From the UHGV virus genome UHGV-0267725: a DNA stretch of 10,398 bases; one strand, 5' to 3'. The translations under genes and the position numbers were made by a program. This DNA comes from a virus. Below the pieces are notes generated by a model. The model saw only the letters and a program-made list of their open reading frames with translations. It did not search any database and was not told the origin of the DNA. Below, piece after piece: positions 3,232 through 9,720 of the stretch (position 1 is the first letter of the stretch; the number at the start of each line of letters is the position of its first letter).

Positions 3232-3531
3232 TTATAAGAAATCGGTTTCATAACTTTGCCCACCATGATAGATACCGACAATAAAGACTTTTCTGCCATC
3301 AACGGCAAAAGCAATAATCGTTCTGTGGCGGAAATGAGTTACCCGCATCCCCTGGCGAATATCATCGCGTTTATTGCCCCGATGCGGGAATGTAGAAAAC
3401 CCATCAAGATAATCAAGAAGCGCATTGGCATAATTGTCAGCAATGACGCTTCCTGCTTTCTCCGTTATGTATCTGTGCAGGTTGATTATCTGCTGTTCGG
3501 CCTCAGGAGTAATGATGACTTCATATGTCAT
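3232..3531 (-). CDS. parE: ParE-family toxin (RelE/ParE superfamily), 99 aa
   Basis: Minus-strand ATG (complement of 3529-3531) gives MTYEVIITPEAEQQIINLHRYITEK...FIVGIYHGGQSYETDFL. It starts 5 nt after the antitoxin stop. Size, position after an RHH antitoxin and the C-terminal R/H-rich region are typical of ParE toxins. The ORF-track extension to 3642 overlaps the antitoxin and is not used. Confidence 0.85.
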   Translation of the reverse strand: MTYEVIITPEAEQQIINLHRYITEKAGSVIADNYANALLDYLDGFSTFPHRGNKRDDIRQGMRVTHFRHRTIIAFAVDGRKVFIVGIYHGGQSYETDFL

Positions 3532-3536
3532 GCAGA

Positions 3537-3794
3537 TTACTTCCCGGATCGAATCGCAGCGCGAACCTGTGAAATGGAGCGTCCGTTGTTCGGGTTTTTG
3601 CGGATTGAATCCAGGGAGGGGGCGGCTGAATGCGTTAACCACGCTTCGATTGCTTTATCGCGCTCATTCAGTGCGCGAAGCCCTTCACGAATGACCTCGC
3701 TTTCTGAAGCATAGGCACCGGAAGCCACACGGGCGCGCACCATGTCAGCCATCTCGTTAGTTAATGTAATGCTGAATTGTTGGGTTGTACGCAT
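3537..3794 (-). CDS. parD: ParD-family antitoxin (ribbon-helix-helix, COG3609-like), 85 aa
   Basis: Minus-strand ATG (complement of 3792-3794) has a good SD (TGAGGT, 6-nt spacer). Translation MRTTQQFSITLTNEMADMVRARVASGAYASESEVIREGLRALNERDKAIEAWL matches the ParD/CC2985-type antitoxin pattern (SE-V-REGLR). It lies immediately upstream of the toxin. Confidence 0.85.
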   Translation of the reverse strand: MRTTQQFSITLTNEMADMVRARVASGAYASESEVIREGLRALNERDKAIEAWLTHSAAPSLDSIRKNPNNGRSISQVRAAIRSGK

Positions 3795-3829
3795 GGTAAA
3801 CCTCAAGGAGTAGGATAGAACACTATTCG

Positions 3830-3857
3830 ATGATAGCACGTTGCCTGTTGACGACAA
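3830..3857 (-). promoter_or_regulatory. Candidate sigma70 promoter for parDE
   Basis: On the minus strand, TTGTCG (complement of 3852-3857), a 16-nt spacer and TATCAT (complement of 3830-3835) lie about 35 nt upstream of the parD ATG. A + strand TTGACG (3847-3852) overlaps this, so a divergent promoter is possible. Based on sequence motif only. Confidence 0.25.
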
Positions 3858-3929: not shown

Positions 3930-4202
3930 ATGGCGCACAAAACCAAATTACACAATTCTGATACCGACCTTGCCATCCGGCACGGGCGGCGTTCTCACAC
4001 ATTCAAATATGACTGGTATCAGCACAATCCCTGCACCGAAGAACAGGCCGAGTGGCTGATTCAGAACTACCGCAGACGTGGTTACGAGTTTCAGAAAGAC
4101 CTCAGTTCTGACTTCCGACACTGGATAATTTCCGTCAGACTCCCTTATTCCGAACGCCCACCGCGTCCGTCCCGCACATTCCAGCAACGGATCTGGAGGT
4201 AA
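3930..4202 (+). CDS. Hypothetical protein (90 aa) translationally coupled to the DUF968 gene
   Basis: The ORF is open from TTG 3876 and the first ATG is at 3930. Stop TAA 4200-4202 lies inside the RBS/start region of the next gene (GGAGG 4195-4199, GTG 4204). The start is uncertain and no family was recognised. Confidence 0.45.
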   Translation: MAHKTKLHNSDTDLAIRHGRRSHTFKYDWYQHNPCTEEQAEWLIQNYRRRGYEFQKDLSSDFRHWIISVRLPYSERPPRPSRTFQQRIWR

Positions 4203-5262: not shown

Positions 5263-5628
5263 ATGACTGAACGCATAGAATTTGTTTTGCCTTACCCGCC
5301 AACGGTGAACACCTACTGGCGACGTCGTGGCAGCACATATTTTGTATCAAAAGCCGGTGAGCGTTATCGCCGTGATGTGGCGCTTATTGTTCGCCAGCAG
5401 CAGTTGAAATTAAGCCTGTCCGGACGGCTGGCGATAAAGATTATTGCAGAGCCACCGGATAAACGTCGTCGTGACCTGGACAATATCCTGAAAGCACCAC
5501 TGGATGCGCTGACGCATGCCGGATTACTCATAGACGACGAGCAGTTTGATGAAATCAATATTGTGCGCGGTCAGCGCGTTCCTGGGGGGCGGCTGGGCGT
5601 GAAGATTTACAAAATTGAGAGTGAGTGA
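5263..5628 (+). CDS. rusA: RusA-family Holliday junction resolvase (121 aa)
   Basis: ATG 5263 directly follows the upstream TAA. Translation contains LPYPPTVNTYWRRRG, PDKRRRDLDNILKAPLDALTHAGLLIDDEQ and GGRLGV, matching the conserved RusA motifs, including the catalytic Asp cluster. Confidence 0.9.
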   Translation: MTERIEFVLPYPPTVNTYWRRRGSTYFVSKAGERYRRDVALIVRQQQLKLSLSGRLAIKIIAEPPDKRRRDLDNILKAPLDALTHAGLLIDDEQFDEINIVRGQRVPGGRLGVKIYKIESE

Positions 5629-6179
5629 TCGTAAATATGATATACCCGGAAATTACAGGCAAAAGCGGCGAGCATTTACGTCTAAAAACGCTGGAAGCCG
5701 TCTGGATCCAGGGGAAATTACGGATGTGGGGGCGTTGGTCGTATATAGGTGGTGGCAAAACAGGAAATATGTTCAATCAGTTGCTGGCATCCAAAAAACT
5801 GACAAAAACCGCAATCAATGAAGCCCTGCGTAGAATCAGGGAGTCAGGGATTGATAAACCAGAGCTGGAAGCATTCTTGCGAGAGATGATCGCTGGCAGA
5901 CAGAAGAGCTGGTTGTCTCACTGTACTGATGCAGAGGCGTTACGCATTGATGGGGTGATAAGTAAAGCGCTTGCACGTTATCCTGGATTGATTGATATCC
6001 TGCGGCAAAGATACGAAGGGCGGGGGATGAGTAAACGCAAAATGGCTGAATTGTTGAATGAGGTGCACCCGGAATGGTGTTTTAGTACATGCGAAAAGCG
6101 AATTGCTAATTGGTTGGCTGTTGCTGAATATGCGCTATACATCCCTATGCGAGAATCGTTTGCTCAAAAAATGTCTTGA
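5625..6179 (+). CDS. Q-position protein, putative late-gene antiterminator (184 aa from GTG 5625, or 180 aa from ATG 5637)
   Basis: The start overlaps the rusA stop (GTGA). The gene lies immediately upstream of a promoter-like element and a strong intrinsic terminator, which is the lambdoid Q/pR'/tR' position. The protein has no obvious Cys4 finger, so its family is uncertain (a non-lambda-type Q or a DUF). The functional call is positional inference only. Confidence 0.7.
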   Translation: MIVNMIYPEITGKSGEHLRLKTLEAVWIQGKLRMWGRWSYIGGGKTGNMFNQLLASKKLTKTAINEALRRIRESGIDKPELEAFLREMIAGRQKSWLSHCTDAEALRIDGVISKALARYPGLIDILRQRYEGRGMSKRKMAELLNEVHPEWCFSTCEKRIANWLAVAEYALYIPMRESFAQKMS

Positions 6180-6758: not shown

Positions 6759-7808
6759 ATGGCCAATACTGTAAAAATATCCAGTTGTGAGTTAATCAAC
6801 GCTGATTGCCTGGAATTTATCCAGACCTTACCGGAAAATTCTGTCGATCTGATAGTCACAGACCCGCCATACTTTAAAGTGAAGCCCGAGGGCTGGGATA
6901 ACCAGTGGAAGGGCGACGATGATTACCTGCAATGGCTGGAGCAGTGTCTGGCGCAGTTCTGGCGGGTACTGAAGCCTGCCGGAAGTCTTTACCTGTTCTG
7001 TGGTCATCGCCTGGCATCTGACACCGAAATCATGATGCGTGAGCGCTTTAATGTGCTGAACCACATTATCTGGGCGAAGCCGTCCGGACGCTGGAACGGA
7101 TGCAACAAGGAAAGCCTGCGGGCGTATTTCCCCGCCACAGAGCGCATTCTGTTCGCGGAACATTATCAGGGGCCGTATCGTCCGAAAGATGCCGGGTATG
7201 CGGCGAAGGGCAGTGCACTGAAACAGCATGTGATGGCCCCGCTGATTGCTTACTTTCGTGATGCGCGAGCTGCCCTGGGGATAACGGCAAAACAGATTGC
7301 AGATGCCACAGGAAAGAAAAACATGGTGTCGCACTGGTTCAGTGCCAGTCAGTGGCAGCTACCGAACGAAAGCGATTATCTGAAATTACAGTCGCTGTTT
7401 GCCCGGGTGGCAGAAGAGAAACATCAGCGCGGTGAACTGGAAAAGCCCCACCACCAGCTGGTGGATACGTATACGTCACTGAACCGGCAGTATGTGGAGC
7501 TGCAGAGTGAATATAAGCATCTGCGGCGGTATTTTGGTGTGACGGCGCAGGTGCCGTACACGGATGTGTGGACACATAAACCGGTGCAGTTCTATCCCGG
7601 GAAACATCCGTGCGAAAAACCGGCAGAAATGCTGCAGCAGATAATCAGCGCAAGCAGTCGTCCGGGTGACCTGGTTGCAGATTTTTTTATGGGCTCAGGT
7701 TCAACGGTAAAAGCTGCACTGGCGCTCGGGCGTCGTGCGATTGGCGTTGAACTGGAGACCGGACGTTTTGAGCAGACAGTCAGGGAAGTTCAGGATTTAA
7801 TCGTTTGA
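6759..7808 (+). CDS. DNA amino-methyltransferase, beta class (N6-adenine or N4-cytosine), 349 aa, orphan
   Basis: Motif IV DPPY (LIVTDPPYF) lies near the N-terminus and motif I FxGxGS (DLVADFFMGSGSTVKAALALGRRAIGVE) near the C-terminus. This motif order defines the beta class. No restriction endonuclease candidate is adjacent. Confidence 0.9.
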   Translation: MANTVKISSCELINADCLEFIQTLPENSVDLIVTDPPYFKVKPEGWDNQWKGDDDYLQWLEQCLAQFWRVLKPAGSLYLFCGHRLASDTEIMMRERFNVLNHIIWAKPSGRWNGCNKESLRAYFPATERILFAEHYQGPYRPKDAGYAAKGSALKQHVMAPLIAYFRDARAALGITAKQIADATGKKNMVSHWFSASQWQLPNESDYLKLQSLFARVAEEKHQRGELEKPHHQLVDTYTSLNRQYVELQSEYKHLRRYFGVTAQVPYTDVWTHKPVQFYPGKHPCEKPAEMLQQIISASSRPGDLVADFFMGSGSTVKAALALGRRAIGVELETGRFEQTVREVQDLIV

Positions 7809-7857
7809 AACGGATGATATTGAAGAATTAATTACGCGTCGTTATTATGCGGCTCCC

Positions 7858-7933
7858 GGCCCTTTAGCTCAGTGGTGAGAGCGAGCGACTCATAATCGCC
7901 AGGTCGCTGGTTCAAATCCAGCAAGGGCCACCA
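7858..7933 (+). tRNA. ileZ: tRNA with anticodon CAU, Ile2 (lysidine) type, ileZ-like; 76 nt
   Basis: I folded the cloverleaf by hand: acceptor GGCCCTT/AAGGGCC, D-stem GCTC/GAGC, anticodon loop CTCATAA, T-arm GCTGG-TTCAAAT-CCAGC, discriminator A, encoded CCA. The sequence closely resembles E. coli tRNA-Ile2 as I recall it. Confidence 0.9.
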
Positions 7934-7934
7934 A

Positions 7935-8011
7935 CCGCCATTAGCTCATCGGGATAGAACGCCAGCCTTCGAAGCTGGTTTCGCGGGGTTCGAGTCTCCG
8001 ATGGCGGTCCA
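7935..8011 (+). tRNA. argN: tRNA-Arg, anticodon UCG, argN-like; 77 nt
   Basis: Acceptor CCGCCAT/ATGGCGG, anticodon stem CCAGC/GCTGG with loop CTTCGAA, T-arm CGGGG-TTCGAGT-CTCCG with one G-U pair, encoded CCA. The D-stem has one mismatch. Confidence 0.88.
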
Positions 8012-8024
8012 TTATCGGTATTCT

Positions 8025-8101
8025 GCGTTGTTAGCTCAGCCGGACAGAGCAATTGCCTTCTAAGCAATCGGTCACTGGTTCGAATCCAGTACAACGCACC
8101 A
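8025..8101 (+). tRNA. argO: tRNA-Arg, anticodon UCU, argO-like; 77 nt
   Basis: Acceptor GCGTTGT/ACAACGC, anticodon stem ATTGC/GCAAT with loop CTTCTAA, T-arm ACTGG-TTCGAAT-CCAGT, discriminator A, encoded CCA. Confidence 0.9.
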
Positions 8102-8270
8102 CACTTATTTTCCCTCGCTCGCTTTTGCGGACCTTTTTTGTATCCGCACCACGCCCGGCGCATACCAACCACAGAGCCTTTCGGGGGGAGCTTATGGAGT
8201 GGTCAGTGTGACTTTCTCTGTGGGCAGATCGCTCCCGGGCGTTGGCTCCCCCACCCAAAGAAACGTCACG

Positions 8271-8689
8271 ATGTTTGGTATTTTTGGTAAAAAGGCCCGC
8301 AGAGCGGCAACGGAAATTAAAAAGTTTTAAAAACGCGATCTGGCACAGGCGGTGATTAACGCCGCATACCTGGTGGCTTGTGCAGGTGGTGAGTGAGGCT
8401 TCCGATCGAACAGGTACTGCGTAATCAGCCAGCGCTGTCCGCGTTTACGTCAGAAATTAATGCGATGAGCGCAACCATTATCGGTCAGCTGGATACGAAC
8501 TTTAAAATTGGTCGTCGTGCGGCGTTACGTGAGATCGAGGATGTGAAACACGATACGCGTGAAGCGGAAGATGTGCTGGATGTGGCGGTGGCCATTGCGG
8601 AGGCAGACGGCGAAATTGAGCCGGAAGAGCGCAAGGTGCTGGAAGAGATTGCCGGTGTTCTGGGTCTTCGTATGGATAATCACCTGTGA
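8271..8689 (+). pseudogene. Decayed TerB-like (tellurite-resistance TerB family) gene; the 3' part (GTG 8393-8689, 98 aa) remains an intact ORF
   Basis: The reading is interrupted twice. ATG 8271 gives MFGIFGKKARRAATEIKKF and hits TAA at 8328-8330. The same frame continues as KRDLAQAVINAAYLVACAGGE and stops at TGA 8394-8396. A second frame, shifted relative to the first, then carries ...AEDVLDVAVAIAEADGEIEPEERKVLEEIAGVLGL to 8689. The two A-x-ADGE-type segments look like the two halves of a TerB fold split by a premature stop and a frameshift near 8390. Confidence 0.45.
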
Positions 8690-8853
8690 CGGTAAAACTG
8701 CGCCTGGTTGTGGCTGCACTCCTGCTGTTTCTGGTGGTGATGGTGGATTTCACCAGCAGAATCATGTCGGTGCTGGCGGATGGGGTGCTGGTCTGCGGCA
8801 TTGTGGTATTGCTGTGGCCGGTGATAAAAAGAAACAGCCTGCATAATGCTTGA
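8686..8853 (+). CDS. Candidate small membrane protein (55 aa, two hydrophobic segments)
   Basis: GTG 8686 overlaps the TerB-like ORF stop (GTGA); stop TGA 8851-8853. Translation is VTVKLRLVVAALLLFLVVMVDFTSRIMSVLADGVLVCGIVVLLWPVIKRNSLHNA. There is no SD, so translation would depend on coupling. It is below the ORF-track size cutoff. Confidence 0.35.
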   Translation: MTVKLRLVVAALLLFLVVMVDFTSRIMSVLADGVLVCGIVVLLWPVIKRNSLHNA

Positions 8854-9068
8854 TTTTTTTGTTTACTGTTTATTAAAAACACTTCTGCATGGTGAATCCC
8901 CCTGTGCGGAGGGGCGACTGGTGTAGGTAGCATTTATTATGTTATAGGCAAGCCGACGCGGGTTCAGTGACACCGGCTGAATTCACCGGGAGGCACCCGG
9001 CACCATGCGCTGCAACAAAAGTGTTATTTCTGTTTTTCTCAAACTATCATCGTTATCCCTTTATTTCC

Positions 9069-9095
9069 GGCTGCGCATGGCGCGGCCTTTTTTTT
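9069..9095 (+). terminator. Rho-independent terminator inside the long non-coding stretch
   Basis: An 8-bp stem GGCTGCGC (9069-9076) pairs with GCGCGGCC (9080-9087) with one G-U pair, around the loop ATG, followed by 8 T (9088-9095). Confidence 0.7.
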
Positions 9096-9276
9096 ACGAC
9101 CAGCCACTGGCAGATGGTCATCCTGTGATTTGATTCCGGTTCCGGCTTTTTAACTCTGTTCCTGTACACGGGAGAAATTCGATGTCGATTAATCGTTATG
9201 ATATTGGTTACACGAAGTACCACGTATGGTGTTGAGATAAAAAGCCTGGTGCCAGAGGTAAATGCAGCAGCATCAT

Positions 9277-9325
9277 AAAAAAAGAGCCAGCGCAGAAGAG
9301 AACGGGTAAAAGAGTCTGCGCTGGC
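9277..9325 (-). terminator. Candidate minus-strand terminator / 11-bp perfect inverted repeat
   Basis: GCCAGCGCAGA (9286-9296) and TCTGCGCTGGC (9315-9325) are perfect inverted repeats separated by 18 nt. On the minus strand the hairpin is followed by TCTTTTTTT (complement of 9277-9285). The loop is long for a classic terminator, so this could instead be a protein-binding site. Confidence 0.4.
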
Positions 9326-9504
9326 GTGGGGATATTCCCCGTGGAGAAATGATATGTAACACACATCGGGAACCTTTCTATATAAACATTATCATTATTG
9401 TCAATCATAACAGTCAGGTATTATGACGTTTATGCCTCAGGGACATCAGGAATTAACTGGTGGCTTTTTATTGTTGTCAGCTTCCGGATAACGGGAGACG
9501 GGGT

Positions 9505-9720
9505 ATGGACCAGATGGAAAAAATCACAACAGGTGTGTCATACACCACTTCAGCGGTGGGGACGGGATACTGGCTACTGCAGTTGCTGGACAAAGTCTCC
9601 CCATCCCAGTGGGTGGCAATAGGTGTATTGGGTAGCCTGGTGTTTGGCCTGCTGACGTATCTGACAAACCTTTATTTCAAGATTAAAGAAGACAAGCGTA
9701 AGGCTGCACGGGGAGAGTAA
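9505..9720 (+). CDS. S: Class II holin, phage 21 S-type pinholin with dual start (71 aa antiholin from ATG 9505, 68 aa holin from ATG 9514)
   Basis: GGGAGA (9493-9498) precedes ATG 9505. Translation [71 protein letters not shown] has the Met1/Met4 dual-start motif, two transmembrane segments and a basic C-terminus. It is near-identical in pattern to S21/EssD as I recall it. Confidence 0.9.

Follow-up and report, generated by a model that had tools for sequence, protein, structure and literature searches.

A probable tciA pseudogene with several lesions beside an intact tciB in a phage cargo module

Positions 8271 to 8689 of a 10,398-nucleotide (nt) stretch of DNA from the UHGV virus genome UHGV-0267725 (here called the window) are very probably a pseudogene of tciA, the first gene of a two-gene cargo module, tciA-tciB, of lambdoid and P1-like phages. 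An initial annotation of the sequence had proposed a decayed TerB-like gene whose surviving 3′ open reading frame (ORF) is start/stop-coupled to a membrane ORF, the whole being eroded cargo, and every test that we applied supported this proposal. The feature is an ordinary, multiply hit pseudogene of a known and annotated family rather than a new system; the tci names are by analogy with the ter operons. It provides a well-documented case of the decay of a nonessential prophage cargo gene by several hits, with its small partner intact.

Translation of the region confirmed the layout given in the initial annotation (Table 1). The 19 codons that follow from ATG 8271, MFGIFGKKARRAATEIKKF, end at TAA 8328 to 8330. 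The same frame then resumes, reads KRDLAQAVINAAYLVACAGGE, and ends at TGA 8394. A shifted frame, open from GTG 8393 to the stop at 8689, would encode 98 amino acids (aa) that include AEADGE, with the second ADGE motif at 8603 to 8614. The first four residues of this ORF (MRLP) are out of frame, and its homology to TciA starts at 8405 and covers residues 50 to 143. The tciA stop overlaps GTG 8686 of the next ORF as GTGA (8686 to 8689). This 55-aa ORF has hydropathy peaks at approximately residues 5 to 21 and 27 to 47, separated by DFTSR, in agreement with the two hydrophobic segments that had been assigned to it. Two details required amendment. The first ADGE-type segment is in the frame and position claimed for it, but its letters in this copy are AGGE. 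Likewise, both of the claimed interruptions are real, but their number was too low: there are at least three disabling lesions in addition to a weakened Shine-Dalgarno (SD) sequence.

The lesions were defined by alignment with five intact alleles; intact homologs are 87 to 96% identical to the window at the DNA level. The alignment confirmed that the nonsense and frameshift positions are real lesions. A G-to-A change at 8261 alters the SD sequence from AAGGAA to AAGAAA. The corresponding sequence in 71 intact loci is CCCAAAGGAACGTCACG-ATG, and among all of the loci fetched, the AAGAAA variant was found only in the window and in three broken alleles (L005, L088, and L094). The duplex between the tciA SD sequence of the window and the anti-SD sequence amounts to just −0.9 kcal/mol. 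At 8328, a G-to-T change converts the GAA or GAG codon of intact alleles (Glu20) to TAA. An A-to-G change at 8386 causes the substitution D39G in the first ADGE motif (8382 to 8393), at an Asp that is nearly invariant in the family. Two deletions, of 2 bp and 11 bp, together amount to −13 nt, shift the frame, and remove the codons for approximately ECEASEKAK, among them the invariant Glu46. As a result of these changes, the first motif reads AGGE followed by a stop, and the acidic residues downstream of it, E41 to E46, are deleted. Further changes are L138M and E139D at the C terminus of TciA and A8V in TciB. The window copy contains neither an intact TerB-family frame of 141 to 144 aa, owing to TAA 8328 and the net loss of 13 nt, nor two ADGE-type motifs in one uninterrupted polypeptide. 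We considered programmed frameshifting or readthrough as a means of rejoining the pieces and rejected it, as it would need both readthrough of the TAA and a −13-nt correction, and the first motif is deleted anyway. From the multiple lesions we infer that tciA function has been lost.

The relationship of tciA to TerB, judged from sequence, is solid. An intact homolog scored 60.2 bits against Pfam TerB (PF05099; cutoff, 24.4), and the 98-aa remnant scored 32 bits over profile positions 63 to 109 of 118 only. Similarly, intact proteins matched phrog_632 ("tellurite resistance") in PHROGs over positions 1 to 143, and the remnant matched only positions 50 to 143 of 143. A profile built from 29 diverse homologs matched the Klebsiella TerB entry 2JXU in the PDB with an E value of 1.1e-14 (query residues 13 to 137 versus chain residues 19 to 144). 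This result applies to the family as a whole; coverage of the domain by the window copy is piecemeal. An AlphaFold2 (AF2) model of intact TciA (predicted local distance difference test score, 89.4) contains helices at residues 4 to 36, 44 to 55, 58 to 80, 82 to 94, 100 to 115, and 122 to 135. The top Foldseek matches to this model in the PDB were TerB-like (2H5N, probability of 1.00 and TM scores of 0.56 to 0.64; 2OU3, probability of 0.93), with weak E values of 0.035 to 0.8; the profile-based match to 2JXU carries more weight. NCBIfam gave only subthreshold matches, to DjlA and YmfL. The Pfam score and the 2JXU match bear out the TerB-like assignment of the initial annotation; a lack of any relationship to TerB, which would have counted against it, was not what we found. 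No homologs starting at GTG 8393 were found either; the intact homologs begin at the ATG and encode 143 aa.

The family is widespread and conserved. A megablast search of phage genomes gave full-length matches in JLK-2012, PPyecE_EH1910, and Evi, in which the genes are labeled tciA/tciB or "TciA/TerB-like protein" and tciA is 432 nt long, encodes 143 aa, and begins at the homologous ATG. Of 5,426 complete Escherichia coli genomes, 789 contain a match that spans 80% or more of the region, and genomes with any match have a median of 3 matching places; the RefSeq labels in E. coli are "tellurite resistance TerB family protein" and "DUF3927 family protein." Homologs occur in Escherichia, Klebsiella, Salmonella, Serratia, Pantoea, Enterobacter, P1-like elements, and Erwinia jumbo phages, and their length stays at 141 to 144 aa down to 52% identity. 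Residues 17 to 46 are nearly invariant, and the invariant or nearly invariant positions within the N-terminal 49 residues are K17, K18, F19, K21, R22, D23, A27, L34, D39, G40, and E46. Intact alleles are under strong purifying selection, with ratios of nonsynonymous to synonymous changes (pN/pS) of 0.02 to 0.12; Evi and PPyecE, for example, differ by 42 synonymous and 3 nonsynonymous changes. Conservation of the MFG start across the family argues that ATG 8271 is the real start of tciA. The frame is open further upstream, to GTG 8199 (MVSVTFSVGRSLPGVGSPTQRNVT..., 8199 to 8270, plus strand), as it is in most intact loci (67 of 80), and some gene callers accordingly give products of 167 to 192 aa.

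If the stop and the frameshifts were errors in the record, the gene would in truth be intact. In favor of this view, errors of the indel type are common, and no more than 140 nt separates the lesions. We regard such an artifact as barely credible, since the same lesions recur in independent assemblies. A single metagenome contig of 2.8 kb (L005) was found to carry the identical 98-aa ORF; over 681 nt it matches the window at every position but 8328, where it has G and the window has T. This allele carries the deletions only. An isolate-genome prophage contig from IMG/VR (L088) has the TAA and both deletions with the same junctions, in a mosaic background that is otherwise approximately 94% identical. 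A third allele, L094, shares the TAA and the weakened SD sequence, lacks the deletions and D39G, and encodes the representative of a cluster of 223 members (P0049). The deletions also lie outside homopolymers. The lesions are therefore not sequencing errors. The allele is nevertheless extremely rare: the lesion junctions were matched on one IMG/VR contig, and the deletions were present in none of the 5,426 complete E. coli genomes, where the best identity across the lesion zone was 92.3%, and in no GTDB representative genome.

The nonsense change and the deletions occur in all four possible combinations (in the window, L005, L088, L094, and L007), although the sites are only approximately 65 nt apart. 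This pattern must involve recombination or gene conversion among prophage copies, reversion, or mixed metagenome assembly. An order of events with the frameshift first and the nonsense change later, which L005 had suggested, was dropped because L094 has the nonsense change without the deletions. These natural broken alleles (nonsense only, deletions only, and both) are ready-made experimental controls. As a separate observation, the methylase gene (7100 to 7800) is 5 to 10% divergent between the window and both L005 and L088, and the region from 7850 to 9500 is nearly identical, which puts a mosaic recombination breakpoint within the methylase gene or shortly past its end.

We then considered the status of the 98-aa ORF. 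It is most likely an inert remnant corresponding to the last two thirds of tciA. Compared with the AF2 model of the intact protein, it lacks helix 1, the loop with the first motif, and half of helix 2. It remains open because the lesions are recent: relative to the nearest intact alleles, it differs by two or three substitutions only. Such openness is expected of a recent pseudogene and is no evidence of selection. The point changes of the window lineage comprise one synonymous, three nonsynonymous, and one nonsense change (Fisher P = 0.0007 versus Evi/PPyecE). This signal of relaxed selection is weak and serves as supporting rather than decisive evidence.

Several observations weigh against a simple pseudogene. 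The substitution counts are tiny, and pN/pS is also near 1 between the close intact alleles EC12 and CP027445. GTG 8393 is preceded by an SD-like sequence, AGGTGG (8384 to 8389), with a duplex of −6.5 kcal/mol and an aligned spacing of approximately 6 nt, the strongest of six starts tested, and it overlaps the upstream TGA as GTGA. These two features make some translation of the 98-aa ORF plausible. The remnant retains the second ADGE motif and still exceeds the cutoff of Pfam TerB, the allele has lasted long enough to turn up in three mosaic backgrounds, and in phages 434 and 2B8 tciB occurs without tciA, so that it may be expressed and function on its own.

These observations could be accommodated by a gene that has been split or truncated and still functions, in which a half-TerB of 98 aa is made, works with TciB, and maintains the coupling to tciB. 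The SD-like sequence was created by the D39G change itself (CAGATGG to CAGGTGG), and the 2-bp deletion produced the GTGA at 8393 to 8396, which resembles the tciA/tciB junction. Helices 3 to 6 and the second motif are retained, the Pfam match is to TerB, and the allele is present in three sequences. We nonetheless consider a functional split gene unlikely. The absent residues, 1 to 49, include the positions that the family conserves best (K17-K18-F19, K21-R22-D23, A27, L34, D39-G40, and E46), and the product would be without the whole first acidic motif. With the deletion-only allele L005, ribosomes could terminate after an N-terminal peptide of 41 aa and then reinitiate, but upstream translation in the window stops at the codon-20 TAA, 62 nt before GTG 8393, and such coupling is therefore largely lost. 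The native tciA SD sequence is weakened as well, every lineage-specific substitution in the 3′ ORF is nonsynonymous, the allele is extremely rare, and the shorter homologs among those retrieved, where examined or labeled, proved to be partial genes at contig ends or other calls that are truncated or frameshifted. The initial annotation had left room for a 98-aa product that acts with the membrane peptide; such a function appears unlikely because the conserved N-terminal third of the fold is gone and the lineage-specific changes look unconstrained. RNA folding around GTG 8393 (8350 to 8440; z = 1.34) was no better than that of shuffled sequences, and the same was true around the tciB start (8630 to 8730; z = 0.35); folding thus gave no structural signal for or against coupling. 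The region from 8271 to 8689 should be annotated as a tciA pseudogene and not as a 98-aa "TerB family protein."

In contrast to tciA, the adjacent gene is intact. The 55-aa ORF scored 63.6 bits against Pfam DUF3927 (PF13064; cutoff, 25) and belongs to phrog_1470 ("TciB-like") in PHROGs, and its only difference from the commonest TciB is A8V. The window thus retains an adjacent DUF3927 gene with two transmembrane segments and a start/stop overlap. The GTGA overlap of tciA and tciB is kept in 79 of 80 IMG/VR loci, and tciB follows tciA even where TciA identity is 52 to 72%, in P1-like, Pantoea, and Erwinia-phage loci. In a P1-like element, a DUF3927 gene follows a TciA homolog with 52% identity; in a Pantoea prophage, an uncalled 49-aa ORF overlaps the stop of the TciA homolog; and in an Erwinia jumbo phage, a 60-aa protein that ends in ...AWPVIKK, like TciB, comes after the TciA homolog. 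The conserved pairing and overlap imply cotranslation. The SD sequence of tciB itself is weak (−3.1 kcal/mol) and its translation appears to be coupled to that of tciA, so TciB output is probably lowered here.

Two side observations concern tciB. In phages 434 (L004, 2467 to 2625) and 2B8, the gene is flanked by two further predicted membrane proteins, and similarity with the window begins only at 8720, inside tciB, which suggests that TciB can exist, and may act, without TciA. In two database proteins, P0007 (197 aa) and P0066 (170 aa), slight shifts of frame at the GTGA junction join TciA and TciB in a single ORF; such fusions probably reflect accidental mutations rather than an interaction.

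We propose that in the intact module, a 143-aa, all-helical cytoplasmic protein of the TerB fold with two acidic ADGE-type motifs would be made first, and that the 55-aa TciB, with its two transmembrane segments, would then be translated through the GTGA stop/start overlap. The two proteins might act jointly at the inner membrane, as may TerB with TerC. In the window copy, the weak SD sequence, the stop at codon 20, D39G, and the deletions would inactivate tciA several times over. The deletions would eliminate the first acidic motif and change the frame, so that only the 3′ part stays open, and with fewer ribosomes completing tciA, less TciB would be expected.

Other prophages carry tciA alleles with disrupted 5′ ends. 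The A-tract at codons 7 and 8 (8286 to 8296 in the window; 4122 to 4160 in both L006 and L007) varies in length: the window lineage has GGTAAAAAGGCC, JLK-2012 and 35 IMG/VR loci have GGTAAAAAAGCC, and E. coli EC12 and 2013C-3492 have GGTAAAAAAAGCC. In the A7 alleles, the ATG frame ends after 16 codons, and the RefSeq start is a TTG 4 nt downstream (MVFLVKK...); the cluster of proteins with the TTG start (P0058) has 847 members. The A7 alleles, nominally intact and the nearest relatives, may be impaired or rely on this alternative start. L092 (CP054314; 1133 to 1300) has lost 1 bp from the AAAAA run in codons 17 and 18, L093 (1100 to 1200) has the first approximately 60 nt of tciA replaced by unrelated sequence, and L094 (205 to 636) is the nonsense-only allele; tciB is intact in all three.

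Such alleles raise the question of whether inactivation is regulated or selected, with a costly tciA switched off in lysogens and tciB and the small RNA (sRNA) downstream of it retained. The 5′ lesions elsewhere arose independently (A7 for A6 in EC12 and CP027445, the deletion in L092, the replacement in L093, and the nonsense change in L094), tciB is intact in all of these prophages, and it stands alone in phages 434 and 2B8. However, prophage genes present in multiple copies decay neutrally in E. coli anyway (here, a median of 3 to 4 copies per genome), the A7 alleles are annotated as intact from the TTG start, intact alleles are strongly purified by selection, and neither a frequency survey nor a phenotype supports selection. 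We judge selected inactivation to be very unlikely. A related idea, which we find quite improbable, is that the lesions are a rescue, in which the new SD-like sequence and GTGA junction allow a half-TerB to keep TciB coupled, or more broadly that 5′ switch-off of tciA recurs in lysogens; if true, it would point to a cost of TciA or to a TciA-independent role of TciB.

The window module resembles the lambdoid TciA/TciB loci of JLK-2012, Evi, and PPyecE_EH1910 in DNA identity (the 87 to 96% given above), in the GTGA overlap, and in gene order (Q/methylase/tRNAs, tciA, tciB, and holin). It differs from them in its weak SD sequence, codon-20 stop, D39G substitution, and 2-bp and 11-bp deletions, which leave only a 98-aa 3′ ORF. 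In P1-like loci, a 144-aa TerB-family gene is directly followed by a DUF3927 gene, as in the window; one such relative, P0120, is 52% identical to TciA. These loci differ in having a third small gene, tciC (a 35-aa ORF in L089), and in adjoining dmt and ban rather than a late lysis region. No equivalent of tciC was seen at the window locus. The tciABC genes of P1 are nonessential (PMC10695390, PMC9603915, PMC4319500).

TerB of the terZABCDEF system (Klebsiella, 2JXU) is all-helical, as TciA is predicted to be, has two acidic motifs like TciA, and has an inner-membrane partner; a passage of PMC11003894 that cites Turkovicova 2016 reports that TerB interacts with TerC. In ter operons this partner is TerC, whereas in the window it would be the 55-aa DUF3927 hairpin, and no TerC, TerD, TerZ, TerA, or TerE genes are among the neighbors in the window, which are phage late-region genes. 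The literature that we found reports no tellurite phenotype for TciA and contains no functional study of TciA, TciB, or DUF3927. A search of the defense-system models of PADLOC-DB gave a single weak, not meaningful hit for intact TciA (PDC-S48; E = 0.0035, 14.5 bits) and none for the remnant or TciB. The stx genes and other morons of Stx phages occupy the same slot between Q and the lysis genes, after the late promoter region and tRNAs of the ileZ-argN-argO type and before the holin, but their proteins are unrelated, and the window module is without a toxin. The intact tciA-tciB pair, conserved from lambdoid through P1-like to Erwinia jumbo phages, strongly constrained, and situated in the stx slot, is a reasonable experimental target.

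TABLE 1 Features of the tciA-tciB locus and of its surroundings in the window
Feature	Coordinates	Strand	Details	Basis
tciA ribosome-binding site, degenerate	8257..8262	+	AAAGAA versus AAAGGA in intact copies (G to A at 8261)	
tciA remnant, codons 1 to 19 and premature stop	8271..8330	+	TAA 8328-8330	Translation, alignment
tciA remnant, codons 21 to 41	8331..8396	+	Original frame; ends at TGA 8394-8396	Translation, alignment
Frameshift zone	8392..8404	+	2-bp deletion (AT) between 8392/8393 and 11-bp deletion (GAGAAAGCGAA) between 8403/8404	
Residual 98-aa ORF	8393..8689	+	GTG 8393 start, shifted frame, stop TGA 8687-8689	
tciB, intact	8686..8853	+	55 aa, DUF3927, two-transmembrane-segment hairpin, GTG start	Pfam, PHROGs, hydropathy
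ParE-toxin/ParD-antitoxin pair	3232-3857	−	Pfam scores of 40.2 and 31.6 bits; prophage early/nin region	
Q antiterminator	5625-6179			
DNA methylase	6759-7808			
Three tRNA genes	7858..8101	+	Anticodons CAT, TCG, TCT	
STnc100-family sRNA	8861..9041	+	Rfam RF02076; 117.6 bits versus gathering score of 47	
Terminator-like hairpin, strong	9069-9087		8 pairs, 7 GC, T-run	
P21-type holin	9460-9720			

The genes around the module are arranged in the order DUF968, RusA, Q antiterminator, DNA methylase, three tRNAs, the tciA remnant, tciB, STnc100 sRNA, and P21-type holin. The stx genes lie in a Q-dependent, late-operon slot (PMC6266700, PMC8065619). Because the slot of tciA-tciB in the late region of this lambdoid prophage matches that of stx, the pair would be expected, by analogy, to be expressed mainly after Q-dependent antitermination. 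The STnc100 sRNA begins 8 nt past the tciB stop and may be what is retained at the locus. A 2026 preprint relates STnc100 to the PasD sRNAs and describes TerB genes as conserved neighbors of PasA/PasC (10.64898/2026.05.13.724894). A promoter scan between the tRNAs and tciA found no sigma-70-like site, with counts equal to the shuffled expectation. Just upstream of the tRNAs is a promoter-like site, TTGAAG-17-TATTAT (7820 to 7848), and the tRNA with the anticodon CAT is called Met by ARAGORN and tRNA-Ile in RefSeq homologs.

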